Part shown: positions 15,001 through 52,004 of the stretch, piece by piece
Layout of the letters: the number at the start of each line of letters is the position of its first letter
How positions within the stretch are numbered: the first letter of the stretch is position 1
Source: an uncultured Clostridia bacterium
GTDB lineage: Bacteria > Bacillota > Clostridia > Christensenellales > UBA1242
Assembly (NCBI GenBank): GCA_934778125.1
Contig: CAKVOF010000001.1
Span: 18,429 to 82,428, forward strand
Length of the DNA stretch: 64,000 nucleotides
Reading direction: 5' to 3'
Made by a program: the position numbers and the translations under genes
The notes under the pieces: generated by a model
Database searches by the model: none
Told to the model about the DNA's origin: nothing
The model's input: only the letters and a program-made list of their open reading frames with translations

Positions 15001-18000
15001 TGTTAGTTGAGTAAACGCACTTTGAATATTAAATTGCTTTGCTTCAATTGTTATTGCCACTTTTATTGTGTTTTCAAATATCGCATTTAAGGCTTGCACC
15101 TTTTCATCTTCAGTGATTGCCTCTATATTAGGTCCACCAGCAGTTTTATGATTAAAATAACTTGCAATATACTCTTTCAAATTATCACTAAAGTTTGCAA
15201 ACTTTTTAACTTTAAATGATATGTGAAAATTTCTTATTTTATCTGTATTAATCTCAAAAACATCATCAAACACAATTTGATATTCACTAGTGTATTCATT
15301 AGCTGGCAATTTTGGTAGGTTTAATGAGTTGTGTGAGAGTTCAATTTCAACAGCTCCCTTTTCTCCAACATTTCCCTCAGCCAAACCACCAAGCCTAATA
15401 ACCTCTGGATTTAAAGCAAACTCTATGTTGTAATTAGACCTTTCCGCCTCAAGCCTATAGCCCACAGACTCAGGATTATACAATGTTGTTTTATTAGATG
15501 AAGTATCCGATGTGATTGTTACGCTGTTTAGAGCATCTAACACCCAAACAAAAATGTTATATGTAACTTTAATTGGTGTTTTTTCGATTTTATTACCTGC
15601 ATCTAATTTATAACCACTATATTCTATATTTATCACATAAGGCTTATTAGAATCCGTTGTTAAATTTTCACCAACCGTTATTATTCCATTTTCCATGCGA
15701 ACGCTTGAAGTTTCACTAATCAATTTAACCGTACAATTGTTTGTTATATCGATATATCTATAATCCGCACCATCTTTAAAGATATTGCTAAGCGTTAATT
15801 TAAGTTTGCTATTTGGAGTAACAACTAATCCTTGAATGTAATCATAGTCAATAGTTTCACCTTCACCACAAACATCATTTTCCTTAATTAAAGAATATGT
15901 ACTTCCATCATACTCAACTTTAAAATCACTTCCTGCCTCATAATTAAACATTTTATTCCAAAGAATCATTCCGCTATTTGAATCAATATCTATTTTGCTT
16001 GGAATAATTGAATCATATGAACTTTCCTCAGCTTTATATTTAAAACCAATAGGAACAACAAGTTTTATGCCAAGTTGAATTTCGTAACCATTAATTAATT
16101 TAATTTTAACATTTTTGATTTCCGCAGTTTTTAAGTCATCATTTGGCACAACCACAATACTTGACTTTAAAACGCCACCATCTTCTTTATTAAACACTTG
16201 CAATTTGAAAAACTCATTTGAATAAACGATACCTTCATTTACATCTTCACAAACCAAAACCGATTTTAAATCGAAACCAGAAATTGTCAATAAAGTATGT
16301 GTTTCTGACAATTTCTCTAAATCAAAATCACTAATAGCCACATTTAAAAAGTAAGAAGCATCTTTTATCTTTTCCATCTCAACAATAGTGGCATTTAAGT
16401 TTGCATTACTTACCAAGTTGATTTTTATCTCTTTTCTGCATAACTCATACTGGCTATAGTTTTCTGTTAATTGCTTTTCAGGGCAAACATCAAAGTGGTA
16501 AACAATAGTTGCAGTTATATCTTTAATATTTTTCAATTGCTCATTAGTTTCAAAAGTGTGCTTTAAATAAACCACTTCATTTAAATTAAGATTTGAATAA
16601 ACAATTGATTTGTTTGCTCCATCTGTGTATGTTAAAACATCGTTTTCATTATTATTTCTAAACACTTTTAATCCAGCCACATCGCCATTCTTTTTCAACA
16701 CATCAATTGATTCAGATGAAATAATTAGCGAATATGTTGGGCTATAAATTGCACTATTATCATCGTTATCAACATTTAAAATTGGCTTAATTTCTGAGCC
16801 ATTAAGCGTGCCTATATATTGAGTAAAAACACTAATGCTTGTTAAGTCTTTGTTATTATTGATAATCATATCTTCAGGCAAAGCAACCACATTAACAGTT
16901 ACTTTAATCTCTTTATCATATAATCCGCCTAAATCTAAATTTCCAGTATTATCAAAATATTCAAATTTGAATGTTAATTCCGCTTCACCTATTTTATCTG
17001 AATTTGTTTTTATTGCCCAGGTGAAACTATTACCTTCAAGTTTATCCGCCTTAATTAATTCACTATTAGAACTTACGCAAGTTACTTTATAACTCGAACC
17101 TAAATCTGAAATAACGGCATTTGCTTTATTTCTTAAATCAAATGTTAAAGTTCTTTGCATTAAATAATTATTTGTTGTTGCGATTGGAGAAAGAATTGGA
17201 TTAACTAAAATAACATTATATTTATCAAGAGAATTCTTAGATAGTTCAAATGTGCTTGAATCTAAACTATCTTTATTCGATTTCACACCAATATTATCGG
17301 CAACCTTCACAACAGCCAATGAAAATTCAAATGGTTGAGAATAATCAGTGGTTGAATCCAAAGTGTCGTGAGCATAAACTGATTTATTTTTTGATTTAAT
17401 ATTTATTTTAACTTTTTCAAAACCTTTCGTAAGCGCATCATTAGCACAAGTAAGTTTTGTTTTTGTTGAGTCTAATGTGAAAACGCTAGTTGAATCAATT
17501 CCATTAATAGTTTCATTAACTATGCTTATCTCAAAATCCCTTTGCTCCGTTTGCATTGGATAAAACTCAAATGCACGAGCTAGAATTTCATTTGAAGCGA
17601 AATCTATAGTTTGACCTTGAGCGATTGCAACTTTGCTTGATTCAAATTTTATTCTTTTCACTTCAACTAGTGATTTAAATGTAACTGATTTATATAAACT
17701 AGTTGGGCCCTCTTTTGGTTTGATCGTGAAAGTCCCCTTTCCGACCATATCTGTTGGGGTGATTGTTATTTTATTTAGCCCCAAAGCTTTATCGTATTCA
17801 ACTGTGAATGTTGCATAAGCATTGTTTTGAATCGGCTGAATTTCCTTGCTAACCGATTTCCCAACCCCAGAGATTTTAACCCAAATCACTGTTGGGATAG
17901 CTTCACCCGTTCCAGCTGGCGAACCAACACTCAACTCCTCATTTAAGTTTAATTCGTTTTTGCATTCAACATCGGTAAAAACAACCATAGTCATTTTAGA

Positions 18001-18084
18001 ATATGGGTTTCCACAGCTTGCCAAAAACATAATTGGGCTTATTAAAACCATTAATAAAACCATCAAGCACTTTTTCATTTTCAT
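1..18084 (-). CDS. Giant surface lipoprotein, partial (at least 6,028 codons; the C-terminus lies beyond the left edge). GLUG-motif-like / parallel beta-helix repeat adhesin.
   Basis: The gene is absent from the ORF track, presumably because no stop lies in the window. I translated the minus strand by hand with codons occupying plus positions 3k+1..3k+3. The start is ATG at 18084 or 18078, preceded by GGAGA (plus 18085-18089). The N-terminus reads MKMKKCLMVLLMVLISPIMFLASCGNPYSK, which is a signal peptide plus lipobox L-A-S-C. Spot checks at 1-120, 2701-2820, 4621-4680, 9001-9120, 10741-10800, 13201-13320 and 18001-18060 found no in-frame stop. The track lists no minus ORF in this frame anywhere in 1-18084, as expected for one unbroken ORF. 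Translated repeat examples are NSKAVAGGIAGYASASDLYGFVSYGNIFY (2701-2820), NVAGLIGLNNGTATITNAYAKV (13201-13320) and YGTAIVAGTNRGIIDCVIV (1-60). Confidence 0.85.
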   Translation of the reverse strand, partial: MKMKKCLMVLLMVLISPIMFLASCGNPYSKMTMVVFTDVECKNELNLNEELSVGSPAGTGEAIPTVIWVKISGVGKSVSKEIQPIQNNAYATFTVEYDKALGLNKITITPTDMVGKGTFTIKPKEGPTSLYKSVTFKSLVEVKRIKFESSKVAIAQGQTIDFASNEILARAFEFYPMQTEQRDFEISIVNETINGIDSTSVFTLDSTKTKLTCANDALTKGFEKVKINIKSKNKSVYAHDTLDSTTDYSQPFEFSLAVVKVADNIGVKSNKDSLDSSTFELSKNSLDKYNVILVNPILSPIATTNNYLMQRTLTFDLRNKANAVISDLGSSYKVTCVSSNSELIKADKLEGNSFTWAIKTNSDKIGEAELTFKFEYFDNTGNLDLGGLYDKEIKVTVNVVALPEDMIINNNKDLTSISVFTQYIGTLNGSEIKPILNVDNDDNSAIYSPTYSLIISSESIDVLKKNGDVAGLKVFRNNNENDVLTYTDGANKSIVYSNLNLNEVVYLKHTFETNEQLKNIKDITATIVYHFDVCPEKQLTENYSQYELCRKEIKINLVSNANLNATIVEMEKIKDASYFLNVAISDFDLEKLSETHTLLTISGFDLKSVLVCEDVNEGIVYSNEFFKLQVFNKEDGGVLKSSIVVVPNDDLKTAEIKNVKIKLINGYEIQLGIKLVVPIGFKYKAEESSYDSIIPSKIDIDSNSGMILWNKMFNYEAGSDFKVEYDGSTYSLIKENDVCGEGETIDYDYIQGLVVTPNSKLKLTLSNIFKDGADYRYIDITNNCTVKLISETSSVRMENGIITVGENLTTDSNKPYVINIEYSGYKLDAGNKIEKTPIKVTYNIFVWVLDALNSVTITSDTSSNKTTLYNPESVGYRLEAERSNYNIEFALNPEVIRLGGLAEGNVGEKGAVEIELSHNSLNLPKLPANEYTSEYQIVFDDVFEINTDKIRNFHISFKVKKFANFSDNLKEYIASYFNHKTAGGPNIEAITEDEKVQALNAIFENTIKVAITIEAKQFNIQSAFTQLTLNINSAKKVEKIILKDVQDSGFYFEAGENRYNNSSIVVEKIIKPNNVFNENIVLGNYINDCYEVKKVLSSLSKEDKQNSRNWKDLIGGIVEGNYDLVIIPKSKAGTEYLTIASEDSFVKNSIESATTKVTIRIKVADGSSENPFEISNASYYKNYFVKDVENGNKERGKYYHYILTNDISLDGTLNYINFPEITNNEGGNFSLNGLFEYKINGDTKEEYHTISYTASVMPFDSLAKNASFGLFKKITTNLATIKNLIVNANFTINTMVSEDKTIIELNIGGICGEFAGVMENCVANTDIIFDDSPSGAIISKLNIGGMVGKLTNDTTNGKIYGFNENLTIAQYSSKMSAKLTKNNTKNENNEINIGGVVGLIDFAGSDGDSNIKDLKVQTYILVGSVESGSVNLSKANVGGVAGKSEIKGEYNESHLTISDVQVFPTLYSYSNVGGVIGLVSENGVYIKDVVVYFPNTEDKGISTASLVAYTKLGGVIGSAKVSGTDAKLIIEQSYARGFNTNEVGGSDNYGDLYAPDSTWSADVGGLIGELNGNASIIKSYFDGSINVEANSNNVAGLIGLNNGTATITNAYAKVRTNSLINGSIKHFDSTEDYTNIKTSYAYINGGLFIVVNSGTNGSSEDLFNNPAFTKVVNNEKIPGFNWYQNENLNDKLPILVVYHSEGIYLKDKNRTVYYEALYDIVPSGIEIDIIPLKVNTVIDNKINYYNKQYIDLGSYVKADKVIKRVVLFHNTQLNGNVTSNYYEFGISNSFRASSSEVVRLANIKFVGNNEIDGVDFIELKVNKNIGIRSSNEGVVKQSIRYGGNIVSTTGYGFAEVTIFSALDHTIKAVVEVIVVDGISGLKLLSENNKELTSSDELVRDKDKLYIDESKDIVANIENTYKSNYVNKENVQYQSFVENNGKMGLILEILDSSYNYQTKESISDNVNATVKIGNEEHTFNTVSDENSFKNNIVIIKNVERNASSFSLKAVRDNAGQDKKSFFKFKVTPFYYLDSVIGDNEIDSITQKYWNENYNQTDPDTGAESSYKYELNSVDTTKHFAIVNDLTKEYCLEVCSRPEYLKIVDNTPSAGISPNNGSVTLTAEIKTSNVYLSNTNQEGYFEITKGSEIFYVKPNETLRLLGYRYQNTSTIRYIKEVDYKIDFNSLSSIYSTTTDNSSILTFELLEGSIKFSGVVDSKQMFVLTYKIKVGFNQDLYNSNNQFYDNIFAQGGMNFKLVFATENSELKSDDIENGQIKTNETIKDYFLVFKPDNITSVISAFYPNELKSTADTYFSPNAKESDYLAPETNGLLKFKIVPGINNAYSYQLRLSESSLALYRNYVRFTQLRAVYKSKMADSAPIFYKYEDIGGPSEIPDRTQKGIVLDKTSNSYLDNNSTFDDLFYVKLFLMQGCPTTDEESGAKAFINFDFIALDENDNVIFKADSISLEVKPLPQVAISIGNENDVVIEENSIKEIYWSAKNFTNLSINLSFKNSINERKIVIVSEDEFEFRNGSINLETTDNTKVRYDIDAVTGKYTNKILMPTDYKFKNTFEKDENGKNKRYWLVTLSDIAKDKDSNYLWSLNETQYASNATVRVIATATRTLNGITLDDVSEVGAQVVDSEVLSIGLAGSSKVGDVNNFEVLNSSYAGLQVEVNKNKAKSSIFEQSYVKDDSLNAKDSSTYINFNGEYQTLEQIKYQVKFIIATEKSKTIYEVTDDELNEVLKYWKVDGADLYLLADNSYIKINDTNRFKYVNQGNYAYAGGDDNVRHINDGEYATHEVDGVQVVYKVKDIITVDKEATKDSLKNTEYNFHFMLGGTLYKLSDYGDSIKALERREGEEVVSITYYVLVNEAIVYLAEIQTEDSEIKIQNLYWNKLSGGYVSDENGDYVRIAKYDKETINAGSASKYSYYKLPMKDNAIDEADANIVKLTVSNKDNFDFVEVKVDSKKVVFMIGEETAPDTYVYNTFNGTLYDFREDNRYKVSEFNSEKITEFLFSGIEIYQLDEENKKITIPYSKTVGKTIESYANFFFVKNGAGEFVRLSTNPDVYKEESFSKLFEFSRRTKNKQINSDDLIEYFSITGLTNGSVEMRIAIDYFYDENGNVFVFIDKNGDGKNDIDERYRLNDVLGNNYYVYFESGITSYRFKLYHIEYDFTLIVKDNSTYDHPTPIYTQSEFEAMTDGNYIMMSDITLENYVPLDANFKSLDGNGYILTIKNFNMSGVSETNTGDYGLFTTISANSIVKNLTINIQNLLVSKTVMANYEKTIESINTADSVTSEIQSQISKHPINLAFKNTVRFGVLAGTNNGILTNIKVVNLNNSENKYLQVLTSEYYEGNISSISIGGLVCVNNGVITNSAIGNIGNIQSWKNKIIGGVQVKTGAGDTTTSMQTNTFVIAGHRNIAGFALENSGTISSSYIKEVGLYNKNTREGSNNGSSTAGFVLNNISSGNILDCSIEGVLKVAIDGKPTSINQYRAKFEEPMATGTEIIDEILYSTGDISGFVFSNNGTIKNAYSMVAMMAPAKNSAGFAFNNQGEIYNAYTTSIDVQTKIGSTYAHYAFVWEMGDSQVIKNSYYLVKDLESYKNESDAEPIKLVFNENGTIQEENENTFKSIATFSSFGFCDEESLDSNWVLNKGKRRPVLVATEYLNTYSHRKIISVRNVDESEAGQKINDDNIETFLNDVSKYSFNYEYLNNQIGSKENPILIDSAEYFVANLLEGSSAVKSVATGNNMMIFGANYSKEITTKPAYLRQINNLDFSIVDNKNVLQNSIVGSNNKVYRVRDLCFAGNFDGNGLNITNLNLSQGSGTEIEVSSFENHGLFNQIGYSIVQAKEFGLSQTQVAVIKNVNFECSEYSSINAKKAGILAGSVYNSSIVNVSISSASGNEIQINAVNMAGAVAGLVLDDFDKPSVKLVDISISNIKISTSYGNYTALTLDSTTVDGVYETFKTNKNNISSISINLDNDKKPYYNQLNDSKNKDISYVGGVAGVIIAQNAGEINREEESTTDSFRSKILIDNDVTEDNYINNLKVSGNVKFISDTVGGVFGYVGANSRVKNSGFIVYSPEVTNQEGENYYQLLKGYNTSGGVVGENLGIIEKCYFTYEEVNTYGDNIDITTQDEFDQSINDWNKGAVSKTPECNIFIDKDEAGRVVAVIGGVVGRSNNGIVVDSMSKVPVMNENAFVAGGLVGLAKNYAFIGSSLTTSMVIAKEVVGGLVGFYNIPFGEEGNIDFKLHIEGSIALNKWDNNIVSKLKNKLLSITGNKLNESNLNFVIRLSEIGNQKFSEINDISSYNDIGANKTYYYNSNGNLTASYDNIRFYAGSLIGSMTTNNSYENYSNLFNKNGYIENVNFVKDITKIKNTASVAYNILTVAMEDDVAGNIEMSYSENYALAYRKLSGSAKTILDNNTDITSVTGDANFEKLLSGTVQLNLQSVTGYFRNYVNNQPYGSSHKIQDENSSINLFRRTLEIYNYDSNGNRITSISPIVIDARFVVLDSVDARTNSIWKNVSENEFAIVKFTSKPYNPVVIIKTSEELNEALAVSGVSKYFKLENLATDNLSGGGVYHVYVNENYNYSKLQGTYLSSIIGSAVGGYNPRVKIHYSSANNLYSLFNRIMNATFENIDFELEISSGSTYANASSEGSFGLFAHSIINSTFENCNFIISGVENDENKQIDIELSTLTNETGEKYATKNFGLVMGNAVASKLNSTKVITLSPIKINAGKASSIGGFIGKTSNCVLNTVDVLTMVGGKGELNANEYKNGSFDIVLSQNRAGENNDIIIGGVVADASHTSLILINKNSVLTEALIASNALIKNTMALGGIRRMVKRFSTLVTESNVVTWFNNFIGLGGKFKVEDTDELINSRILSLSPSVSYKAGSDSETTGIKHNVYLAGLVGVLTHSSLNESIFVGNVFANVMQPNSISDKNTYSYSIVLGGACGSINNSGVYSTQIDMLINGDRLVELNNHKIVLNTNGLNATSKVGGVAGEVIGNSSLFGAISSYSDNVSSNINIEINSINEAMVGGIAGFVGSASQKLSVIYAYNLGEIKVCDDCTGTIYVGGVCGFISMGNVANVYNAGDIKLAENSNSKAVAGGIAGYASASDLYGFVSYGNIFYYDDSKNIIAPILASGIANSVNLGYGYTISRLYAYQLNYENELLVDNILNAQTASISNISNSSNTNIVYYINEFSVQYDELRNSIKDTPAYNGTVGVGYSDFDYELIKRSGVLNAGGYSQILSKGESEFAVSFEVDYSLGVFTESFLLRITGLLSPISANEISSEEGSKVNPLRVDNYITLKSKLSESLGNIGDEKYIIANIPMDSSKSEVNNAISDLYDVVVGVKQTAKQAKYAELYLTSNKSLIGTIHSTGILSGFSVKVYDNKNKIRDGYSPIASVNNGMIFNVVAYGKTEIELQKGSSKNVSAFVGKNNGQIYRSGSVVSFTGNITAENIEVKGNNVNNSLKISGIANENNGIVKDSYSLANYDNLTTSNEANISTNPNEEYVGVLKEYNANSLQVTLATGESTYMAFDKNGDKLAEYITTDSCYAKVYSEEDINNVITGAYAFNEEIEGAGVIKTGYVIFKDIASSKIEDNGIGEKILTIIKGSGKIYKVAFEKYGGSDFKVEYADKITIDGKDFYTTEKLSYTPNREVSDSIIVAGLVYNQRTGENAKAKLENAFHSGSFIDFNADAIKYTHIYEKSASGAYEMKAKTPTAGNTAGFINVYGNSYSDEIIDGEIACFNSSNNEINPGSDIYNVWKKASSDENYNTYYINNGIMIATGINSDLNSDDEHSFTNVAVGGGVAGKEYKQNTVDSDSGLISEANNDFKVKDKPNNAGPGENDSKYDMFEESSNNIIIRSEKDFLRYVLGQATGDKKVPNYSVTELNKNVYILNDLDFSKVSNRYGAFSLVKLCKGYEFKGFNVTIKNLKLSGPLFQQNEGTISGITFDNLTVSGNSYTFDGKILTSYGTAIVCGLNLGTIELVKVTNSKVYANNDYGTAIVAGTNRGIIDCVIVSDCAV

Positions 18085-18132
18085 TCTCCTTTGCTCTAAA
18101 TATATTATTAAACAATTATATAATAATTATTT

Positions 18133-18155
18133 ACGCTCGCGCGTGCGCGTGCGTA
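18133..18155. other. Alternating pyrimidine-purine CG/TG tract (acgctcgcgcgtgcgcgtgcgta) in the giant-gene leader
   Basis: It is the only GC-rich patch in a 520-bp AT-rich intergenic region. Positions 18138-18155 alternate perfectly (CGCGCGTGCGCGTGCGTA). As RNA it can fold as ACGC-A-CGCG/CGCG-A-GCGU. Confidence 0.6.
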
Positions 18156-18176
18156 TTTATATAAATATACAAATAT

Positions 18177-18205
18177 ATTATATAAACTTTATAATATATA
18201 GTCAA
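18177..18205 (-). promoter_or_regulatory. Candidate sigma-70-type promoter of the giant gene
   Basis: On the minus strand I read TTGACT (plus 18200-18205), a 17-nt spacer, then TATAAT (plus 18177-18182). This lies about 95 nt upstream of the start codon. The background is AT-rich, so chance matches are common. Confidence 0.4.
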
Positions 18206-18606
18206 ATAAATGCACTAAAAAATCGCTTTTTACAATATTTTAAAATATAATGATTTAACTTGCTGAAAAATAATTTTAAGATTCCAAATTTTTATTTTAA
18301 TTTCAAGTTTGATTTTTTACCACAACATCAAAAACTAAAAATTATTGTAAAAAAATAAAAATTTGTAATATTGTCATAAACATATGCGTTTTTGTCAATA
18401 ACATAAGCATTATAAACACAACCCCTCATTTTGTTTTTCAACCCATTTAAAGTTTATTTGTGTAATTTAAATAAATAATTTAAAAGACATTCACATTTCA
18501 TTAATTATTTGATATAATAATTTCACGAAAATTAAAAACAAAAACAACTCATCTGTTTGTTACAATAAAGCAAACTATAAGCAATTTAAATAACTAAAGA
18601 AAACAT

Positions 18607-19479
18607 ATGAAAACAAAAAAAGATATAAAATTTATAGTCAATAAAGTATTAACGTGCTTCTCAGAAGCATTGTTTTACTTTGCGGTAATGCTTTCTCCGT
18701 TTATAGCATATGGATACATTCATAAAACTCCAGTAACTTTATTTGGCGCGAATGTTTCAGTCGTAACAACAGGAAGTATGATAAATAGTGGATTCAATAT
18801 TGGCGACACCCTTATTCTGAGGCGAATAAACCCACACAACATCAAAGTTGGCGATGCTATTGCTTTTTATTATGAAGCTAGTGAAATCCCAAATAGAAAC
18901 GAATTGCAAACATATGTGAGCGTGAAAACTGTTCCTAATAACCTTTCATTTAATGAAATGTTTGGCATTAATAATAAGTATTTTCTTGAAGCAAGCAAGA
19001 AGAATCGTTTCGTTTGCTTTCACCAAGTTGTAAACATCTATATTGATAAAAATGGTGAACTATGGTTTGAAACTTGGGGCACGAGCAACGTTGATAATGA
19101 AGGAAACAAGTATTATGATAAAAAACTAACCAACGAAAACTATGTGGTAGGCAAATATTCTAGAAGGCCATATCTCATTTGGATTATAACATCTCTCGCT
19201 TTAAAGTTTGGTCTTAAAAACGTTTTGATTTGCGTTTGCACTGTTGTATTCATATCAATTATAATTAGATACTCATTAGTTTTTAGAAAATTATATTTAT
19301 CAAATAAATTATACAAACGAGAGCTTTCCATAACAAATAAAGTTTTCACCCCAAAATTCTTTTTGGAAACCTCTTTAAAAGATAGAGCAAAGTTACTTTC
19401 ATCAGCCAAACCAAACGAACTTATAATTTATAAAGAAAAGTTGTTTAATAGTAAATATATCAATTATTATAAATCATAA
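18607..19479 (+). CDS. Signal peptidase I, SipW/ER-archaeal type (S26B-like), with a C-terminal TM segment and tail
   Basis: There is an N-terminal TM anchor, then VVTTGSM (the catalytic Ser context of S26 peptidases). The motif GDTLILRR...VGDAIAFY follows, and FHQVV resembles the conserved His box of SipW-type enzymes. A second TM lies near residue 200. This is a motif-level call only. Confidence 0.6.
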   Translation: MKTKKDIKFIVNKVLTCFSEALFYFAVMLSPFIAYGYIHKTPVTLFGANVSVVTTGSMINSGFNIGDTLILRRINPHNIKVGDAIAFYYEASEIPNRNELQTYVSVKTVPNNLSFNEMFGINNKYFLEASKKNRFVCFHQVVNIYIDKNGELWFETWGTSNVDNEGNKYYDKKLTNENYVVGKYSRRPYLIWIITSLALKFGLKNVLICVCTVVFISIIIRYSLVFRKLYLSNKLYKRELSITNKVFTPKFFLETSLKDRAKLLSSAKPNELIIYKEKLFNSKYINYYKS

Positions 19480-19579
19480 AGCCATAAAAGTTTTTAATTT
19501 TACATCTTTACCTAAACGCATCATGAAATCATAATTTAGCATAAAATATAAATGCTCACAATTTATTCGTTTAAAGTTT

Positions 19580-19607
19580 AAGAAGAAAGATTATTTCTTC
19601 TTTTTTT
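19580..19607 (+). terminator. Rho-independent terminator
   Basis: Stem aagaagaaa / tttcttctt with loop gatta, followed by a T-run. Confidence 0.7.
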
Positions 19608-19807
19608 ATTATTAATTTAAAAAAATGTGTAATTAATTTGTTTATTAAAATAACACATTAGATATTATTTAAGTTGTTATTATTTGACATTTGCATTGAT
19701 TTAAGTAATAATTTATTATGATATAAATTAAAAGCTTTAAAATATCAAACGCTTTAATCAAACTAATTTAAAAGCTCAACAAAACTTATCATTATATAGG
19801 AGTGAAT

Positions 19808-20563
19808 ATGTACAACAAAGAATTTAGCAAAATATACAAAGATTCAGGCTGGGAACTTTTTGCCGATGTGTTTGGCAACTTCCTAATTAAGTATTTCGTT
19901 AAAAAAGAAAAACCAATTTTATCACACTTAGATCTTGCATGTGGAACTGGTTATCTTTGCAACCTATTTAATTCATTTAACATTGAAACGAGCGGAATGG
20001 ATATTTCTGAAAGTATGCTTGAAATAGCACGCAAAAGTTATCCTAATATCACTTTCACTCAAGGCGATATGATCGATTTTAAAAACCTAAAAAAAGTTGA
20101 TTTAGTGACTTGCACCTGTGACTCACTCAACCATTTATCGAGCTTAACCAATGTTCAAAACGCAGTTAAAACCGCCTACAAAAACTTAAATGAAAATGGA
20201 TATTTTGCTTTTGATATTGTTAACACACGCAAAATTCGCCTAGAAAAAACATATGGCTTTAAAACTGAACACGGTGATATTGAATACTATTTCACAATAA
20301 ACGATGATGATAAATTAATCACTAACATAACTGTCACTGATAACAATGGCAAAGAATATAAAAAGAAAATTGAAGAGTTAGCAATCAACAAGAGCGATAT
20401 GAATTCTATTTTAACAGAAGTTGGTTTCAAAATAGAAAAAGTTTATCCATCAATTAAAGCAACTGGCACAAAACTAAACTTAAAATGGTTCTACATTTGC
20501 AAAAAAGAAACTCCAAAAAAGAAAAAGGAAATGGTTAAATATGGGAAACGTAGCAAAATTTGA
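19808..20563 (+). CDS. Class I SAM-dependent methyltransferase
   Basis: The motif LDLACGTG is the SAM-binding motif I. The ATG at 19808 sits 5 nt after AGGAG. The track's start at 19802 is a GTG two codons upstream. Confidence 0.75.
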   Translation: MYNKEFSKIYKDSGWELFADVFGNFLIKYFVKKEKPILSHLDLACGTGYLCNLFNSFNIETSGMDISESMLEIARKSYPNITFTQGDMIDFKNLKKVDLVTCTCDSLNHLSSLTNVQNAVKTAYKNLNENGYFAFDIVNTRKIRLEKTYGFKTEHGDIEYYFTINDDDKLITNITVTDNNGKEYKKKIEELAINKSDMNSILTEVGFKIEKVYPSIKATGTKLNLKWFYICKKETPKKKKEMVKYGKRSKI

Positions 20564-21053
20564 AAAAATTTCATTTGGCCAATTTTTAAAAGATTATCAA
20601 AGCACTTTCCCAAACATAGATGAAAACACTATCACTGGTTATTATAACAACTTAAAATTACCAAAACGCGCAACAATGGGTTCCGCTGGTTATGACTTTT
20701 TTATTCCGTTTGATTTAACATTAACACCAGGTGAAACTATAAAAATTCCAACCGGAATTAGAGTTCAAATCGATGAAGGCTACTTCTTGCAAATCACTCC
20801 ACGAAGCGGGTTGGGATTTAAATTCCGCCTTCAACTAGACAACACTCTAGGAATAATCGACTCTGATTACTACAATTCATCAAATGAAGGCCATATTTTT
20901 ATTAAAATGACCAACTTAAACTCTGAAAACAAAGTACTTAATGTTCTTCAAGGGCAAGCGGTGGCTCAAGGAATTTTCCTTGAATTTGGTATAACATACG
21001 ATGATGATTGCGAAGAAATTAGAGATGGTGGTTTCGGAAGCACAACAAAATAA
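20541..21053 (+). CDS. dut: dUTP diphosphatase
   Basis: The motifs GSAGYDF, RSGLG and the C-terminal GGFGSTT are typical of trimeric dUTPases. The gene overlaps the upstream gene by 23 nt. Confidence 0.85.
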   Translation: MGNVAKFEKISFGQFLKDYQSTFPNIDENTITGYYNNLKLPKRATMGSAGYDFFIPFDLTLTPGETIKIPTGIRVQIDEGYFLQITPRSGLGFKFRLQLDNTLGIIDSDYYNSSNEGHIFIKMTNLNSENKVLNVLQGQAVAQGIFLEFGITYDDDCEEIRDGGFGSTTK

Positions 21054-21083
21054 AACAACTTAAATTTTAATATAAAATGTTTT

Positions 21084-21109
21084 AAACTCTACTATATGTA
21101 GAGTTTTTT
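21084..21109 (+). terminator. Rho-independent terminator
   Basis: Stem aaactctac / gtagagttt followed by a T-run. Confidence 0.7.
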
Positions 21110-21171
21110 ACACACATTATAACACAATTTAAATAGTTGATTAAATAAATGTTATATGCTATAATTCAGAT

Positions 21172-21852
21172 ATGGACAGTGAAAAACTAAAAAATATAAT
21201 TGTTAAAAATTTAATAGATTATAGAAAGGCAAGCAAACTCACTCAAGCAGAACTTGCTGAAAAAATTAATTATTCAGATAAAGCAGTTTCAAAATGGGAG
21301 CGCGGAGAAGGCACTCCTGATATATTCGTGTTGCAAGAAATTTGCGAGGTTTATAATATCTCAATCAACGACCTTATAAGCGAACACAACACTCCAATAG
21401 AATTGAACAAACACCACAAGAAAAAAGATCGATTTATTTCTTTTACCACAAAAAATTTAATAACCCTATTATCGTTTGGGCTTGTTTGGTTTATTGCAAC
21501 AATTATTTATGCAGGGCTAGAAATCTTTACTAAAATCGATAGAGTGTGGCTTGTGTTTTTATATGCTATCCCAATTAGCGTGCTGGTTGTTTATATATTC
21601 ACGAGAATCTGGGGAACAAATTGGCTCAACTTTATTTTCCTTTCATTCTTCTCTTGGTCATTTACCACATGCATTTACTTAACATTTAAAATCAATATGC
21701 TTTGGCTACTTTTCGTTGCAATGGCAAGTTTCCAAGTTTTAATAATTCTTTGGTTCTTTTTAAAGCAAGAGAAATTTAAATCAAAGCAAAAAAATAAATG
21801 TAAACCCATCGCAGACAACTTAAAACAAGATAGTAAAACTAAATTAGATTAA
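21172..21852 (+). CDS. XRE-family helix-turn-helix protein with a multi-pass membrane domain
   Basis: The N-terminal sequence LTQAELAEKINYSDKAVSKWERGEGTP is a Cro/C1-type HTH. It is followed by about 4 hydrophobic segments. Confidence 0.7.
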   Translation: MDSEKLKNIIVKNLIDYRKASKLTQAELAEKINYSDKAVSKWERGEGTPDIFVLQEICEVYNISINDLISEHNTPIELNKHHKKKDRFISFTTKNLITLLSFGLVWFIATIIYAGLEIFTKIDRVWLVFLYAIPISVLVVYIFTRIWGTNWLNFIFLSFFSWSFTTCIYLTFKINMLWLLFVAMASFQVLIILWFFLKQEKFKSKQKNKCKPIADNLKQDSKTKLD

Positions 21853-21974
21853 ACCACATTAAATAAACATAAATTAGATTAAACTAAGTCATATAAAATC
21901 AAATTAAACAAAATTAAGTTAAATTAATTAAGTTAAATTAATTATATAAATTCTATTCAAACAATATTTAAATA

Positions 21975-22028
21975 AATAAGACTTAACAAAAAAAAACGGC
22001 ATTCACCGTTTTTTTGTTAAGTCTTATT
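21975..22028. terminator. Long bidirectional terminator hairpin
   Basis: The sequence aataagacttaacaaaaaaaaacgg ... ccgtttttttgttaagtcttatt forms a stem of about 23 bp with A/T runs on both sides. Confidence 0.7.
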
Positions 22029-22102
22029 TTATATTTTAAAAGCCTTTAACCACATATTAACCATTCTTTCCATAAAATTAAATAAATTAGCCATTTTAAT
22101 TT

Positions 22103-22155
22103 TAGCATAAATGACTATTTTGAAAATTAATCAGTAACGCAGTTTGCGATGCTTT
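22103..22155. repeat. Direct repeat copy A1 (53 nt)
   Basis: Sequence: tagcataaatgactattttgaaaattaatcagtaacgcagtttgcgatgcttt. It differs from copy A2 by 3 mismatches and 1 indel. It contains the quasi-palindrome TGAcTAtTTTgaAAAtTAaTCA. Confidence 0.85.
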
Positions 22156-22182
22156 GCCCTTTGCTTGTTATTTCCTATCACC

Positions 22183-22312
22183 CCATTTTGGAGTAAAAAG
22201 CAAGCAGAACAAGGCTCGATTTATTTTCAAGATAGGAGCATATTTAGCATATGTGACTATTTTGAAAATTAATCAGAAACGCAGTTATGCGATGCTTTTT
22301 ACTCCAAAATGG
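22183..22312. repeat. Perfect 20-bp inverted repeat pair flanking 90 bp
   Basis: The left arm ccattttggagtaaaaagca (22183-22202) is the exact reverse complement of tgctttttactccaaaatgg (22293-22312). The right arm contains the last four alaS codons (AILE) and the TAA stop. Confidence 0.9.
22245..22298. repeat. Direct repeat copy A2 (54 nt), abutting the alaS stop codon
   Basis: Sequence: tagcatatgtgactattttgaaaattaatcagaaacgcagttatgcgatgcttt. Confidence 0.85.
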
Positions 22313-24122
22313 CTTTGATACGGCGAACACCCGCCCCACAACTTTCCTCCTTAATTATCTTGAAATGCCCCAATTCTGCCGTGTTTTTTGCGTGTGGCCC
22401 ACCACATATTTCCTTTGAAACATTGCCTATGGTAAACACTTTAACTATATCACCATATTTGTTATCAAAAACTCCTATGGCACCACTTTTCTTCGCTTCA
22501 TCAACGCTCATTTGTGAGCATTCAACTGGTATGGCTTGCTTTATTGCATCGTTTACGAAATCTTCAACCTTAGCTATTTCTTCTTTTGTCATAGCTTTAT
22601 CGTAAGAGAAATCAAAACGCGCACGTTCACTTGTGATATTACTTCCTTTTTGGAAAACTTTATCGTTCAAAATTTTTCTTAAACCTGCATTCATTAAGTG
22701 AACCGCGGTGTGCAGTTTAGTTGTTTTTTCGCTATCATCAGCAAGCCCACCTTTGAACTTTCCCGCTGATGTTGTGCGGGCCAATTCTTGATGCTCTTGC
22801 ATTGCAAGCTTAAACCCTTCACTATCAACTGAGTAGCCTTGCTCATTTGCCATTTCAATTGTTATCTCAAGTGGAAAACCAAAAGTTTCATAAAGCCTAA
22901 ACGCTTGCTTCCCTGAAATAATTTTTTCAACCTTTTCGCCTGTCTTTTTAGCAAATTCAATGTGCCTTTCAATTCCATTTATAACCTTTTGGAATTCTTT
23001 AACGCCAAAAGAAAGCGTTTTCAAAAACTTTTCTTCTTCTTTGTTTAATTCAGTTATTATTCTTTCTTTGTTTTCTAAAAATTCAGGGTAATCATCTTTA
23101 AACATTTCAATATAACAATTTGCAATTTCGCCTAAATGCCCCGCTTCAATCCCAAGGTTTTTCATACATCTAATAGAACGGCGAATTAGCCTTCTCAAAA
23201 TATAGCCAGCATCGGTGTTTGATGGCACTATTCCTTTTCTATCCCCTAAAATTGCAGTTGCAGTTCTTATGTGGTCGGCTATAATTCTAAATGAACGTGT
23301 GTTTTCATCCCCATCATCACTATAAGATTTTCCAGAAAGTTTTTCAATAACTTTTAAAGGTTCTTCAAACAGCTCCGTTTCATAAATCGATTTTGCTCCG
23401 TTTAGGACCATTAAGTTTCTCTCTAAGCCAAAACCCGTGTCCACATTTTTTTGCTTTGCTGGGATATATTCAGTATCTGATATTTTTTCATATTGCATAT
23501 AAACATCATTACCAATTTCAATATACTTTCCGCAATCACAAGATGGATTACACTCTGGGCAACATTTTTCTTTTCCAGTATCTAAAAACATTTCGCTATC
23601 AGGACCGCACGGACCTCTAGAAATCTCCCACCAGTTATCTTTTTTAGGGCGATAAAAAATTCTATCTTCTGGCACACCCATTTTTAACCAACAATCGTGA
23701 GTTTCAGTATCTTTTGGTGCGTTTTCATCACCTGCAAAGCAAGTTACTGCAAGTTGATTTTCTTTTAATCCAATATATTTTTCACTTGTTAAAAACTCAT
23801 AACTCCAAGCAACTTTTTCTTGCTTAAAATAATCGCCCAAACTCCAATTTCCAAGCATTTCGAAAAAGGTTAAATGAGAGTTATCACCAACCTCGTCAAT
23901 ATCGCCAGTTCTTATACACTTTTGAACATCGGTCAACCTTTTCCCAGCTGGGTGAGATTCACCTAAAAGATATGGCACAAGCGGATGCATTCCAGCAGTT
24001 GTGAATAGCACGCTCGCATCGTTTTCTGGAATAACTGATGCAGATGGAATCACCGCATGACCTTTTTCCTTATAAAAATTTAACCATAAATTAATCAATT
24101 CTTTTCTTGTATATTTTTTCAT
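22299..24122 (-). CDS. alaS: Alanine--tRNA ligase, short form (607 aa, no C-Ala domain)
   Basis: The class II core is present (FTTAGMHP, TFFEMLGNWSLGDYFK). The editing domain carries HTAVHLMNAG and CGGPH. The ORF ends about 30 aa after CGGPH. Confidence 0.9.
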   Translation of the reverse strand: MKKYTRKELINLWLNFYKEKGHAVIPSASVIPENDASVLFTTAGMHPLVPYLLGESHPAGKRLTDVQKCIRTGDIDEVGDNSHLTFFEMLGNWSLGDYFKQEKVAWSYEFLTSEKYIGLKENQLAVTCFAGDENAPKDTETHDCWLKMGVPEDRIFYRPKKDNWWEISRGPCGPDSEMFLDTGKEKCCPECNPSCDCGKYIEIGNDVYMQYEKISDTEYIPAKQKNVDTGFGLERNLMVLNGAKSIYETELFEEPLKVIEKLSGKSYSDDGDENTRSFRIIADHIRTATAILGDRKGIVPSNTDAGYILRRLIRRSIRCMKNLGIEAGHLGEIANCYIEMFKDDYPEFLENKERIITELNKEEEKFLKTLSFGVKEFQKVINGIERHIEFAKKTGEKVEKIISGKQAFRLYETFGFPLEITIEMANEQGYSVDSEGFKLAMQEHQELARTTSAGKFKGGLADDSEKTTKLHTAVHLMNAGLRKILNDKVFQKGSNITSERARFDFSYDKAMTKEEIAKVEDFVNDAIKQAIPVECSQMSVDEAKKSGAIGVFDNKYGDIVKVFTIGNVSKEICGGPHAKNTAELGHFKIIKEESCGAGVRRIKAILE

Positions 24123-24193
24123 TATGTTTCCCTTTATTAATTTGCATTGAATACTCTATTAAAAGCAAATTATATGATTTACTAAACTTTAGT

Positions 24194-24222
24194 ATTTTAC
24201 CAAACTATGCTAAATTTTTCAA
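24194..24222 (-). promoter_or_regulatory. Candidate alaS promoter
   Basis: On the minus strand I read TTGAAA (plus 24217-24222), a 17-nt spacer, then TAAAAT (plus 24194-24199). It lies about 70 nt upstream of the ATG. Confidence 0.4.
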
Positions 24223-24250
24223 GGTTATTTCATATGATTTTATATTTAAT

Positions 24251-24386
24251 GCTTTTAAATAGGCAAATGGGCACGCTATCAGCCGAACGAAGTTCGGCTA
24301 GGGTGCGGGCGGGAATCAAACCCCGCACCCCGCTTGGAAGCAAAGCCTCCAAGCATAGCGTGCCCCATATTAACAAGCCTAAAAGC
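24251..24386. other. GC-rich four-way-junction (cloverleaf-like) structured element. Candidate ncRNA or mobile palindromic element; strand unknown.
   Basis: P1 is atgggcacgctat (24267-79) paired with atagcgtgccccat (24355-68), with one bulge. Arm 2 is gccgaac-gaa-gttcggc (24282-98). Arm 3 is gggtgcggg (24301-09) paired with cccgcaccc (24322-30). Arm 4 is gcttgga (24332-38) paired with tccaagc (24348-54). An outer extension pairs gctttt/aaaagc and aggc/gcct. The junction linkers are only 0-2 nt. Confidence 0.6.
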
Positions 24387-24461
24387 ATAGCTTGCTTTCA
24401 CTCATTCACAAACGCCTAATAATATTCATATTATGAAACGTAAGAAGGATTTGGAGAACAT

Positions 24462-25133
24462 ATGAGATACTACATAGATAAAAGTGTGTTATTAAACGAT
24501 ATAAAAGTGGTTGCTTTTGATTTTGATGAAACATTTTATTCGGCGGAAAATATGCGCGAATTATACTTAAATTATATTAAAAAAACATTTAAAAAACTTT
24601 GTGGTTTTGATGATAAAAAAACAAAAAAAGTTATGCATTCTTTGGGCTACACATTAGAAAGTAAAACCGCGCCAAGTTTTAGCCAAATATGCACAAATTT
24701 TGGCGTAAGCGATATTGAGTATCACAAATATAGAATAACAAACTATTTTGAAATTGATTACACAAAAGCTGAGATTGTTTCTAACGAAACACTAGAAAGG
24801 TTCGCCAAATTTTTTAATCTTTATATTGTGAGCAACGAAATCAACACAATTTTAGAAAGTAAAATAACAAAAATTAATTTGAATAAAGCCCTATTTAAAG
24901 GCATTTATTCAACGCCAATAACTGCCACCAAAACGAACTCAAAAGATATTCCATACCTAGATATTATTCATAGAGAACACATAAAACCTTCTGAATTGCT
25001 GGTTATTGGCGATAGATTTAAAGTTGATATCGAACCCGCAATTGAACTTGGCGCAAACGGAATTTTAATTGATAAACCAAGGGACTTAATTTCAATCATC
25101 TCACAAATCGAAGAACAAAAAAATATAAACTGA
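24462..25133 (+). CDS. HAD-superfamily hydrolase
   Basis: Motif I is FDFDET (DxDxT) and motif IV is GDRFKVDIEPA. Confidence 0.7.
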   Translation: MRYYIDKSVLLNDIKVVAFDFDETFYSAENMRELYLNYIKKTFKKLCGFDDKKTKKVMHSLGYTLESKTAPSFSQICTNFGVSDIEYHKYRITNYFEIDYTKAEIVSNETLERFAKFFNLYIVSNEINTILESKITKINLNKALFKGIYSTPITATKTNSKDIPYLDIIHREHIKPSELLVIGDRFKVDIEPAIELGANGILIDKPRDLISIISQIEEQKNIN

Positions 25134-25179
25134 TTAAAAAAACTTATGAACCACAATATTCATAAATTTTTTTAAAAAT

Positions 25180-29405: not shown

Positions 29406-30821
29406 ATGAAAAAATTAAACTTTTTTGTTAAAAATAGTTATGGAGTTGGTAATTTGGCATATAGCGTGATAAGCCAAAATGTGACCAACTTTTATATGTT
29501 TTTCGGAACTGCCGTTTTAGGTGTTTCGGGCTTTTTAGTTGGGTTAGCCATCTCAATTGCCACAATGTGGGATGGGCTATCCGATTGCATAGTTGGCGGA
29601 ATTAGCGATAGATATAAAATTGGAAAATTAGGTTATAGAAACGGTTATATGCTAATTGCCACGATTGGAATGTCAGTTATAAACGTGTTGATTTGGTTTG
29701 CACCATTAAACGCACCACAAATATTGAAATTTATTTGGATTGGTGTTGGACTTTTAATTTTAGAAACATTCAACACCCTTTTTTCAACGCCCTATATGGC
29801 TCTTGGAAACGACATCGCAACCGACTCTCACGATAAAACAAGCATTCAAATATATAAAACAATGTTCTTCATTCTTGGAATCGCAATACCAAGCGTGCTT
29901 ATGTATCTTTTCCTACCAAACACAGAAAATTATCCAATAGGCCAATTAAACCCATATGGTTATAGAAAAATAAGTTTAATTTTAAGTGGAATTTGCTTAA
30001 TTGCGGGATTATTCTGCACATTTTCAACACTAAAATGTGTTGATAAAAATAGCAACGCTGATCAAAAACAAGACAAGTTTTCTTTCAAAAAGTTAATAGT
30101 TGATTTTTATTCATCATTTAAAAATAAGAACTTACGATGTTTAATAATTGGATTTGCACTATCTCAAATCACACCAACGGTTTTAACAGGTGCTGGAATG
30201 CACTTCTTCACATATTGCTTTCTTTACTCCACCAAACAAATAACTATTCTTTTATCAGTTTTAATGCTAGGAACTTTGGTCAGCCAGCCCGTTTGGTTTC
30301 ATCTAAGCAAAAAAAATGGAAAGTGCTCAACTATGATTTCGGGCATATTCGTTTCAATTTTGGGTGCTTTTTTAATTATGTTTTCTTACTTTCTAAGATT
30401 TAAACTCCTTGAATACTCCTACATTTTGGCTATAATTTCAATCTTTATTTGTGGCTTTGGAAGTGGCACGCTTTACACCTTACCAATCAGCCTATTTGGC
30501 GATGAAATTGATAAGATAAATAAGGAAACACGCTCAAATAGAACTGCCACCTATAGCGGAAATTTAACCTTTTCCGCAAACATTGCAAATGCAACTGCAC
30601 TTTTATTTATTGGCGTTCTATTAGATTTAATTCATTTTGATTCAAGCGTGGAAATTCAACCCCTTTCCGTTCAATCTGGACTTGCAATCATTCTATTTAT
30701 TGGCGTTATCATTCCCTTTTTATTAAGCACACTATTTTTCTATAAATATAAACTTTTAAATCAGTCACACTCCACAACAAATCCTAAGTTACTAAAAAAC
30801 ACCAATGACACCAAAAACTAA
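29406..30821 (+). CDS. GPH-family (MFS_2) glycoside/cation symporter-like transporter
   Basis: The protein has about 12 TM segments. The N-terminal MWDGLSDCIVGGISDR is the GPH signature region. Confidence 0.75.
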   Translation: MKKLNFFVKNSYGVGNLAYSVISQNVTNFYMFFGTAVLGVSGFLVGLAISIATMWDGLSDCIVGGISDRYKIGKLGYRNGYMLIATIGMSVINVLIWFAPLNAPQILKFIWIGVGLLILETFNTLFSTPYMALGNDIATDSHDKTSIQIYKTMFFILGIAIPSVLMYLFLPNTENYPIGQLNPYGYRKISLILSGICLIAGLFCTFSTLKCVDKNSNADQKQDKFSFKKLIVDFYSSFKNKNLRCLIIGFALSQITPTVLTGAGMHFFTYCFLYSTKQITILLSVLMLGTLVSQPVWFHLSKKNGKCSTMISGIFVSILGAFLIMFSYFLRFKLLEYSYILAIISIFICGFGSGTLYTLPISLFGDEIDKINKETRSNRTATYSGNLTFSANIANATALLFIGVLLDLIHFDSSVEIQPLSVQSGLAIILFIGVIIPFLLSTLFFYKYKLLNQSHSTTNPKLLKNTNDTKN

Positions 30822-31205
30822 ATTAACTAGCAAAAGTTAATTAAATAGTGATAGCTTGTATTATTTGAAGTTGTAGGCAAACAGTCCAAAGGGATACTTG
30901 CTAGCAACTGATGTTAATCAAAACTGTGATTCCTTGATTTATCAAGGAGTTGCGTTTATCAACTTAAAATTTAACTTGATCAAATTTTACATCACTTAGT
31001 TTGTAATATTTAATTATTCTTTATGTTGCACACAACTTGCAAGTGCATCATCTTGCTTTAAATATTTTAAGCGCTTGTTTTTAATTTATGAAATCAATTT
31101 AAAGATCACTTTTTTTACAAGTGATATCGGAATATTAAAATAAAAACCTAAAACGCTTTTTAACCACATAATAGCAAATAAAAATAATTTTTCATAATAA
31201 ATAAT

Positions 31206-50340: not shown

Positions 50341-50520
50341 GCGATAACTTTTCGTTTGATATTTATATTACACTTTATCTTTATATAATAAATCTTCATT
50401 TTGTTATATCTCCTCTCCGCTTATCATATCTTCAAATACACAACTAATAAAACCTTAATTTAGGCGTCCTTGTGCAAGGGAAGCTGTCACGAATCTTCAG
50501 TGAGTGACTGAAGGGTTGTT
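50341..50520 (-). repeat. Intergenic module E1 (box R, GC hairpin H, AT-rich module M), paralogous to 62838-63029
   Basis: H is 50463-50484 (aggcgtccttgtgcaagggaagc). R is 50491-50520 (gaatcttcagtgagtgactgaagggttgtt). M is 50341-50454 and is read on the minus strand. See the findings for the alignment. Confidence 0.7.
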
Positions 50521-51929: not shown

Positions 51930-52004
51930 GCGTCCATAGTGAAATGGATATCACATAAGTCTTCGGAACTTAGATTTCGGGTTCGAGCCCTGATGGACGC
52001 ACCA
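51930..52004 (+). tRNA. tRNA-Arg (anticodon UCG), CCA encoded
   Basis: I folded the cloverleaf by hand. The acceptor stem is GCGTCCA/TGGACGC and the D-arm is GTGA-AATGGATA-TCAC. The anticodon arm is TAAGT-CTTCGGA-ACTTA and the T-arm is TCGGG-TTCGAGC-CCTGA. The discriminator is A, followed by CCA. Confidence 0.85.

Follow-up and report, generated by a model that had tools for sequence, protein, structure and literature searches.

The DNA analysed here (the window) is a stretch of 64,000 nucleotides (nt) of contig CAKVOF010000001.1, from an uncultured Firmicute with a low GC content that lives in the human gut (Hadza metagenomes appear among the sample names), and the subject of this report is a compact GC-rich element within it. 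The core element occupies positions 24269–24365 (97 nt, 64% GC as compared to about 31% in the window) and lies in a 339-nt spacer between alaS (22299–24122, minus strand) and a gene for a HAD-family hydrolase (24462–25133, plus strand). A preliminary description of the locus had reported a GC-rich element in an AT-rich spacer, and this is in fact the sole intergenic GC island of the window: among intergenic segments of 60 nt only those of the element reach 58% GC or more (maximum 67%), the rest of the window is 26–37% GC, and all other stretches with at least 58% GC per 60 nt lie inside open reading frames (ORFs). These other islands are explained by an ORF of 608 amino acids (57319–59145, minus strand) with GC-rich 9-nt periodic repeats that encode collagen-like Gly-X-Y. 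The alaS product is an alanyl-tRNA synthetase (AlaRS) of 607 amino acids with catalytic and editing domains, and the window is ordinary chromosomal DNA that carries several aminoacyl-tRNA synthetases, FtsH and signal peptidase.

Folding of positions 24251–24386 recovers the closed, almost all-Watson-Crick four-way junction that had been drawn by hand, on both strands and with RNA (RNAfold) as well as DNA parameters. The RNA energies are −69.9 kcal/mol for the plus strand (z −8.75) and −77.1 kcal/mol for the minus strand (z −8.13), the DNA energies are −42.9 (z −8.97) and −45.2 kcal/mol (z −8.93), respectively, and none of 200 shuffled sequences folded as well. No strand can be assigned to the core element, which folds into the closed junction equally on either one. 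The four stems around the junction measure 11, 8, 9–10 and 10 bp, and the junction linkers of the window element are only 0–1 nt long. The closing stem is formed by GGGCACGCTAT (24269–24279) and ATAGCGTGCCC (24355–24365), which constitute 11-bp terminal inverted repeats of the kind expected of a miniature inverted-repeat transposable element (MITE). It had been proposed to be 13 bp long with a bulged C; the uninterrupted stem is 11 bp, and 13 bp are reached only by adding AT/AT together with the bulge. Arm 2, AGCCGAAC-GAA-GTTCGGCT (24281–24299), has 8 bp and a 3-nt loop; arm 3 (24301–24330) consists of GGGTGCGGG, a 12-nt loop and CCCGCACCC; and arm 4, GCTTGGAAGC-AAA-GCCTCCAAGC (24332–24354), has 10 bp, including one A.C on the plus strand that is a G.U on the minus strand. 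The edges of the element read AAAT/GGGCAC...GTGCCC/CATA.

By way of the protein clusters of AlaRS and HAD, the corresponding locus was retrieved from 15 other assemblies of the species, and eight haplotypes in two clades were distinguished. Clade A comprises V1 (the window), V2 and V7, in which the element is 97–98 nt long and is followed by a right-flank segment of about 32 nt, while clade B comprises V3–V6 and V8, in which the element is 93–94 nt long and the segment is missing. The same junction is formed by either strand of all eight haplotypes, and the folding energies are similar (plus/minus: V1 −63.0/−68.8, V3 −67.1/−65.5, V4 −68.8/−68.4, V5 −53.3/−51.1, V8 −65.2/−69.1). The better folding of the minus strand in the window stems from two G.U pairs that are A.C on the plus strand, and is a peculiarity of clade A; over all haplotypes, a G.U results on the minus strand from about five single-side transitions and on the plus strand from three, hence there is no strand bias. 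The suggestion that the element might be a one-off insertion was too strong, given that the same fold occurs in all 15 other assemblies, though a sister species lacks the element (see below).

The clade-A segment (24366–24397) bears on another earlier proposal. The preliminary description had extended the closing stem into the flanks through the pairings gctttt/aaaagc and aggc/gcct, and these do exist in the window, where GCCT...AAAAGC of the segment pairs with 24251–24264; they need, however, a segment that only three of the eight haplotypes possess (V3–V6 and V8 lack it) and that is not part of the conserved structure. The idea that the element was inserted into an older hairpin fails because these outer pairings depend on the clade-A segment: the outer right half is a clade-specific addition of 32 nt and the left half has no partner in clade B. 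The segment resembles a partial inverted copy of the left flank (ATGCTTTTA plus AGGC), which would make it an extension of the palindrome.

Variation within the species is concentrated outside the helices. In a hand-made structural alignment, on which all stem and loop counts rest, 16 of 78 stem columns vary as compared to 22 of 23 unpaired columns (Fisher p = 4e-11), and 98.8% of the cells in paired positions pair. The 5' half of the closing stem is invariant in seven of eight haplotypes and the 3' half in all eight; the single change, an A>C in V8, lengthens arm 2 instead, and in V8 the register of the stem is shifted with total pairing kept. The outer pair of arm 2 is A-T in clade A and T-A in clade B, and the loop of this arm reads GAA, AAA or AGA. 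The core of arm 3, GGTGCGGG/CCCGCACC, is common to six of the eight haplotypes, V5 and V6 have 3–4 transitions in the outer four positions of its 5' half, and its loop, 12 nt long in the window, is replaced in clade B by 6–7 nt of unrelated sequence with the stem register off by one pair. The AAA loop of arm 4 is flipped to TTT in one assembly (locus L046), and the stem of this arm carries single-side transitions in V3, V5 and V6. Since 27 of the 32 consensus pairs never vary, support from covariation is minimal: the check for homologues and covariation that had been recommended yielded homologues in 15 conspecific assemblies, but only one covarying pair, the outer pair of arm 2. A ligand-binding riboswitch had been considered a poor fit, and the variation of nearly every unpaired column within one species agrees with that judgement.

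Conserved half-sites separated by free spacers would also be expected of a cluster of duplex operator palindromes bound by dimeric regulators, and the element indeed keeps the primary sequence of its stems, varies in its loops, and sits upstream of two promoters at roughly −40 to −140 from both. We consider this very improbable. Three different palindromes with linkers of 0–3 nt are nested inside a fourth, 11-bp repeat, and the register shifts preserve pairing, which together indicate a single-stranded fold and not duplex operators. In V8 the shift leaves total pairing intact, the spacer of arm 3 ranges from 6 to 12 nt, and the half-site of arm 2 has been altered by a compensatory transversion.

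How slowly the stems evolve depends on the yardstick. Between the clades, divergence is 24–31% at the four-fold degenerate sites of alaS and HAD on either side of the element, 6–12% in the stems (V1 and V3 differ in 9 of 78 columns, by five substitutions and a one-pair register shift), and about 74% at the unpaired positions (17 of 23 between V1 and V3). The promoter-bearing flanks of the spacer differ by only 2–6%, so the right neutral yardstick for the element is uncertain. The stems thus change at a clearly lower rate than synonymous sites (binomial p about 1e-3 or lower), yet not at a lower rate than the flanks. The low divergence of the flanks may be due to constraint or to recent recombinational homogenisation.

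Recombination at the locus certainly occurs. Between locus L001 and the window the four-fold sites of both genes differ by 26–27%, but a near-identical tract of about 500 nt (23900–24400) spans the element, a recombined tract. A second comparison is provided by L045 and L046, which are 99.9% identical over 10.8 kb: seven of their eleven differences fall inside the 94-nt element, and all seven affect loops or a loop-closing pair. The left flank of L046 diverges completely from a point 1 nt outside the closing stem; its translation matched nothing when searched as protein, and it contains a diverged copy of a second dispersed, insertion-polymorphic repeat. L046 represents either a second copy of the element elsewhere or a rearrangement breakpoint at the edge of the element.

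This second repeat, with the core CAGTTGCTGGCAAGTATCCCTTCGGGCTGTTTGCC and a small hairpin, was found at 30800–30950 of the window (minus strand), at 7253–7398 of L053/L054, at 7150–7300 of L054 and at 1–64 of L046. In L053/L054 it forms a unit of about 146 nt downstream of alaS that is absent at the corresponding position of the window (about 21886) and has TAAACTA duplicated at both ends; the window copy follows the MFS gene and is not there in L051. It looks like an active MITE-like element in the species.

The gene order around alaS also varies. In ERZ27286955 (L054 1–7800 as compared to window 14600–22300) wholly different genes lie downstream of alaS (Obg, YhbY, HhH-GPD and an aminotransferase), and the alaS–HAD side of L054 is identical to that of L053. 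In L045, an ATP-grasp gene replaces the dUTPase gene and an extra ABC transporter follows the MFS gene. The neighbourhood of alaS is a rearrangement hot spot. Directly downstream of alaS in the window there are two 44-nt direct repeats (22101–22144 and 22243–22286; 93% identical, TTTAGCATA..GACTATTTTGAAAATTAATCAG.AACGCAGTT) 142 nt apart, adjoined by a strong bidirectional terminator-like hairpin at about 21990–22015.

The best promoter-like sites of the spacer, which are sigma-70-like consensus matches and not mapped starts, point away from the element. On the minus strand, an alaS promoter-like site, TTGAAA-17-(TG)TAAAAT (24194–24222), is identical in clade B and has a similar counterpart, TTGAAA-17-(TG)TAAACT, upstream of alaS in the sister species. 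A second minus-strand site, TTGCCT-18-TAAAAT (24237–24266; TTGTCT in clade B), has a −35 that ends 3 nt from the element, and on the plus strand a HAD promoter-like site, TTCACA-18-TATTAT (24405–24434), has a −35 that in clade B begins 8–9 nt past the element. The best promoters in both clades thus flank the element and face outward, as the preliminary description had placed them, and neither clade has a promoter above the scan threshold that is aimed into the element or a terminator-like site at it on either strand. The plus-strand promoter that had been suggested to start an RNA near 24251, TTTCAA-18-TATATT, is present (24217–24222 / 24241–24246), but it is weak (8/12), lies below the scan threshold and is not conserved; its TTTCAA is the reverse complement of the alaS −35 TTGAAA, and its −10 reads TACATT in the other clade.

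A cis-regulatory leader of alaS or the HAD gene (a riboswitch, a T-box-like element or a tRNA mimic) is largely refuted and retains next to no probability. The element adjoins alaS, and on the minus strand it bears a superficial likeness to a tRNA in the arm-3 loop GUUUGAUU and in an A that follows the closing stem on its 3' side. Its position upstream of both outward-facing promoters, outside the best consensus matches for both genes in either clade, means however that it is not a leader. In addition, alaS and HAD of the sister species lack the element, the T-loop-like loop gives way to 6–7 unrelated nucleotides in clade B, neither a G3.U70 nor a tRNA or T-box match is present, and the unpaired nucleotides that might form a pocket are not conserved. 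Mimicry of tRNA-Ala or of a T-loop for AlaRS was rejected on the same lack of G3.U70 and of loop conservation. The claim that the element is not a tRNA was borne out by ARAGORN, which found only a tRNA-Arg (51930–52004) in the window and no tRNA or tmRNA at the element.

Other identities were tried as well. No family of Rfam 15 matches the window or the clade-B loci at gathering thresholds, in agreement with the preliminary description, and at E<=10 both clades give only noise, the best hits reaching 15.5 and 16.4 bits where thresholds of 70 and 42 apply. Two ORFs of 70 and 52 amino acids run across the element; a protein-coding reading was rejected because the haplotypes, at 93, 94, 97 and 98 nt, do not keep a common reading frame, and a phmmer search of the 70-amino-acid ORF against 1.84 billion proteins returned only the clade-B allele of the same locus. 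An ssoA-like origin was dropped, as TAGCGT is present but paired and outside a loop. An integron attC site was likewise rejected: the R''/R' cores (RYYYAAC...GTTRRRY) do not agree with ends of GGGCACG.../...CGTGCCC, and the window contains no integrase.

An orphan structural non-coding RNA (ncRNA) is a more serious alternative, which we regard as possible, if doubtful. The 97-nt junction would be transcribed from a weak spacer promoter or within a longer RNA and trimmed to the closing stem, and would work as a species-specific small RNA through its helices only, for instance as a protein scaffold, RNase III substrate or exonuclease-resistant module. A GC-rich structured island in an AT-rich intergenic region is the classic discovery signature of an ncRNA, and the folding z scores of −8 to −9, a fold that all eight haplotypes keep (98.8% of cells paired, a single compensatory pair), the stems less diverged than four-fold sites, the GC-rich helices kept against AT drift and the occupation of the site in all strains are consistent with it. 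On the minus strand, moreover, the two plus-strand A.C mismatches of clade A are G.U, and only there do the arm-3 transitions of V5 and V6 keep wobble pairing. The strand signal is nevertheless inconsistent, since three other changes favour the plus strand and the energies of the two strands are equal. Further points against an ncRNA are the lack of an inward promoter at the scan threshold and of a terminator, the loops and linkers, all of which vary within the species (one loop is inverted), so that no single-stranded recognition surface is conserved, the near invariance of the pairs that keeps covariation minimal, the absence of an Rfam match, and the absence of the element at both sister-species loci.

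The outward promoters also suggest a role at the level of DNA topology, namely that a supercoil-driven double cruciform acts as a topological buffer or switch between back-to-back genes. Divergent transcription of alaS and HAD would underwind the spacer, a four-way junction would be extruded from each strand, about nine helical turns would be absorbed, and the −35 regions would be brought together. The mechanism is coherent in that the −35 hexamers lie close against the element, at 3 nt from its left edge (TTGCCT/TTGTCT) and 8–9 nt from its right edge in clade B (TTCACA). The strand-symmetric fold with a DNA-parameter z of about −9 and the 3-nt loops of arms 2 and 4 fit the proposal, AT-rich flanks favour extrusion (C-type cruciform kinetics), and the loop flip and the palindrome extension show that hairpins form in the DNA in vivo. 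On the other hand, the arms are short (8–10 bp), the loop of arm 3 is 7–12 nt long, the halves of the closing repeat are 75 nt apart, which is poor for the nucleation of extrusion, and the 32-nt insertion of clade A alters the geometry without apparent cost. We know of no documented precedent for a three-hairpin promoter switch in bacteria, and on balance we consider this proposal rather improbable.

The lineage distribution of the element was assessed in relatives. In the sister species GCA_045638985.1 (AlaRS 83% identical, HAD 59%) the element is absent upstream of both alaS and HAD. There alaS follows an MFS gene, and the alaS–HAD junction is specific to the studied species; because the gene order differs, no true empty site is available for comparison. 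More distant relatives (AlaRS 71%) have no element next to alaS.

Further copies were sought with a covariance model (R1) and with sequence patterns. R1 matches the element once in the window, a repeat search and a GC-island scan together with R1 reveal no further copy there, and about 30 kb of sister-species DNA contain none. Searches with blastn for both clades against phages and plasmids gave only chance matches of 26–32 nt, and five exact patterns, including a closing-stem pattern, had no match in IMG/VR. In GTDB genomes, the 18-mer GCGGGGTTTGATTCCCGC gave 27 matches, all of 18–20 nt and by chance in GC-rich taxa, with no tRNA T-arm among them, and a 22-mer across junction 2, a variable region, had no match in JGI metagenomes; these two negatives are weak, because the 18-mer (arm-3 loop) and the 22-mer lie in hypervariable parts. 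The closing-stem pattern, searched in JGI metagenomes, found seven loci, all of a GTAG-tagged REPIN family on contigs of 58–73% GC, which share with the element the 11-mer GGGCACGCTAT alone (about 20 bits with R1). The likeness is probably due to chance, because with a palindromic query a single coincidental 11-mer is enough for a match, and the sequences agree in no other part. That family (L038–L044) consists of GTAG and a GGCACGC-TAT(T)-GCGTGCC hairpin followed by an inverted copy and CTAC, 90–109 nt in all, and L044 carries a tandem or nested version.

The shortlist of the preliminary description (a structural ncRNA, a mobile GC cluster or palindrome, a DNA cruciform or recombination site) is still right, and within it we tentatively favour a lineage-specific composite palindromic GC cluster that was fixed at a rearrangement junction and resembles REP/BIME elements or mitochondrial GC clusters. 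Three short GC-rich hairpin palindromes within an 11-bp inverted repeat would have been acquired or assembled in the ancestor of the species, at the junction where alaS became back-to-back with the HAD gene, and would since have been carried at this single site in all sampled strains. The element would behave as a DNA palindrome, adopting the four-way junction on either strand whenever it becomes single-stranded (through replication, supercoil-driven opening or read-through RNA). Its helices would owe their retention either to selection for foldability or to correction or conversion templated by the hairpins, its exposed loops and linkers would mutate, flip and change length very fast, and its ends would be recombinogenic. 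The absence of a strand preference, an inward promoter and a terminator points to a structure whose importance or persistence lies in the DNA, or in both strands alike. A DNA-level reading is further suggested by the lack of any conserved unpaired nucleotide, the flipped loop, the clade-specific extension of the palindrome, the clustering of mutations in loops and the rearrangement that coincides with the element edge. The presence in the same genome of a small mobile repeat (about 146 nt, TAAACTA ends, insertion-polymorphic) was also counted in favour. From these observations we infer a selfish or mobile origin and no sequence-specific function. The element, an unusually clean four-way junction, belongs to no known family, and its kind is that of palindromic GC-rich extragenic elements, not a demonstrated new RNA class.

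Several findings weigh against a GC cluster of this sort. None of the 15 other assemblies has an empty-site allele; the element occupies one and the same site throughout, unlike an actively mobile element, and neither the presence/absence polymorphism nor the target-site duplication of a MITE is seen, as no direct repeat flanks it. The ORFs of the window include no transposase, RAYT (Y1 transposase), integrase or reverse transcriptase, and the REP/REPIN tags GTAG and CGTC are absent at the element, where AATG is found. R1 detects one copy only in about 75 kb of DNA of the species, a second genomic copy is not demonstrated (L046 is only suggestive), and the searches for copies outside the species are weak, as two of the three collection patterns lay in variable parts. 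Finally, stems that are about as conserved as the promoter-bearing flanks, and GC-rich helices that are retained despite AT-biased drift, fit a function at the level of the host, as RNA or DNA, at least equally well.

Such a host-selected, structure-only device would be either a species-specific, stable four-helix RNA with dispensable loops or a supercoil-triggered cruciform that couples the two promoters, and would be new to bacteria. We consider it unlikely, but it keeps some weight because the helices have been retained although the flanking genes differ by 24–31% at four-fold sites, and because GC content has been held against AT drift. If transcribed or extruded, the element would be a minimal four-way junction that depends on structure only, with no conserved loops, which is unusual both for functional RNAs and for promoter architecture. 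The practical value of the case is at present modest; it serves as a warning that GC-richness and superb folding do not on their own make an intergenic island an ncRNA gene.

Several further features of the window were recorded. The AlaRS protein has the tRNA_SAD editing-domain motif and lacks the C-terminal C-Ala region, and at least 8000 similar proteins of about 607 amino acids occur in uncultured relatives, one of them named Clostridia bacterium. Database gene calls for the species read through TGA (genetic code 4), giving a HAD protein of 237 amino acids with W at TGA and a methyltransferase of 279 amino acids (read-through sites at 25131–25175 and 20561–20640 of the window). Code 11 seems correct and the longer calls look like artefacts, because in-frame TGA is absent from the long conserved genes and 23 of 29 long ORFs stop at TAA. 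A giant minus-strand ORF extends from about 18100 to position 1 and past the left end of the window; it has no Pfam match on record and is called as 9341, 9328 and 7985 amino acids in other assemblies. Towards the other end of the window, inverted repeats of about 130 nt (50344–50476 / 62848–62984; 79–86% complementary) flank a 12.4-kb segment with the tRNA-Arg, a papain-like or lectin protein, TraX, a DUF11 protein, the collagen-like repeat protein and a 1028-amino-acid Listeria-Bacteroides-repeat protein, and this segment may be invertible or mobile.

Among known systems, structured ncRNAs found in GC-rich intergenic regions share the discovery signature of the element. In 2019, Stav et al. 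reportedly sought ncRNA candidates as long, GC-rich, well-folding intergenic regions in AT-rich genomes. In members of this class that have been validated, unpaired nucleotides are conserved, the strand is defined and pairs covary across genera; the element shows none of these traits. A tRNA also has four helices around a junction, and the clade-A minus-strand loop of arm 3 has been noted above as T-loop-like; the stems of the element, however, measure 11, 10, 10 and 8 bp as compared to 7, 4, 5 and 5 bp in a tRNA, its T-like arm is the middle arm and has an unconserved loop, and an anticodon loop is missing. Bacterial MITEs with structured transcripts, such as the Correia, BOX and bcr1 types, resemble the element in their length of about 100 nt, terminal inverted repeats, intergenic location and strong folding, while the element differs in having no target-site duplication, no copy family found and a GC content twice that of its host.

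The REP, BIME and REPIN sequences of Proteobacteria are extragenic GC-rich hairpin palindromes, in some cases joined into mosaics or inverted doublets with a single common fold (Bertels & Rainey 2011, PMC3116915; Di Nocera et al. 2013, PMC3733652; Messing et al. 2012, PMC3479197). They too have conserved stems and free loops. The element differs from them in lacking the GTAG/CGTC tag, in having no RAYT gene in the window and one copy seen in about 75 kb, and in consisting of three different hairpins inside a long-range repeat, not one REP or an inverted pair; even the JGI REPIN family with the shared 11-mer carries GTAG...CTAC, unlike the element. In the mobile GC clusters of yeast mitochondria, loops evolve above and stems below the synonymous rate, clusters merge into composites, and flanks are co-converted (Wu & Hao 2015, PMC4478555). 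The element is likewise a GC-rich palindromic island in a very AT-rich genome, its stems lie below and its loops above the synonymous rate, it is built of composite hairpin units, and it recombines together with its flanks, as do clusters such as GC42. The yeast clusters differ in being organellar, multi-copy and present or absent at homologous sites, whereas the element has one documented chromosomal locus, occupied in every strain, and forms a closed four-way junction of 93–98 nt. By analogy, and with the element in none of their sequence families, the yeast mitochondrial GC clusters appear to be its closest documented match in behaviour and REP/BIME/REPIN its closest bacterial relatives in kind. 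If the GC-cluster reading that we favour is true, the element would be the equivalent, in a bacterial chromosome, of the palindromic GC clusters of AT-rich mitochondria, in which population data catch loop hypermutation, loop flipping, palindrome extension and edge rearrangement, and would offer a useful case of how hairpin-forming DNA evolves in small AT-rich gut genomes.

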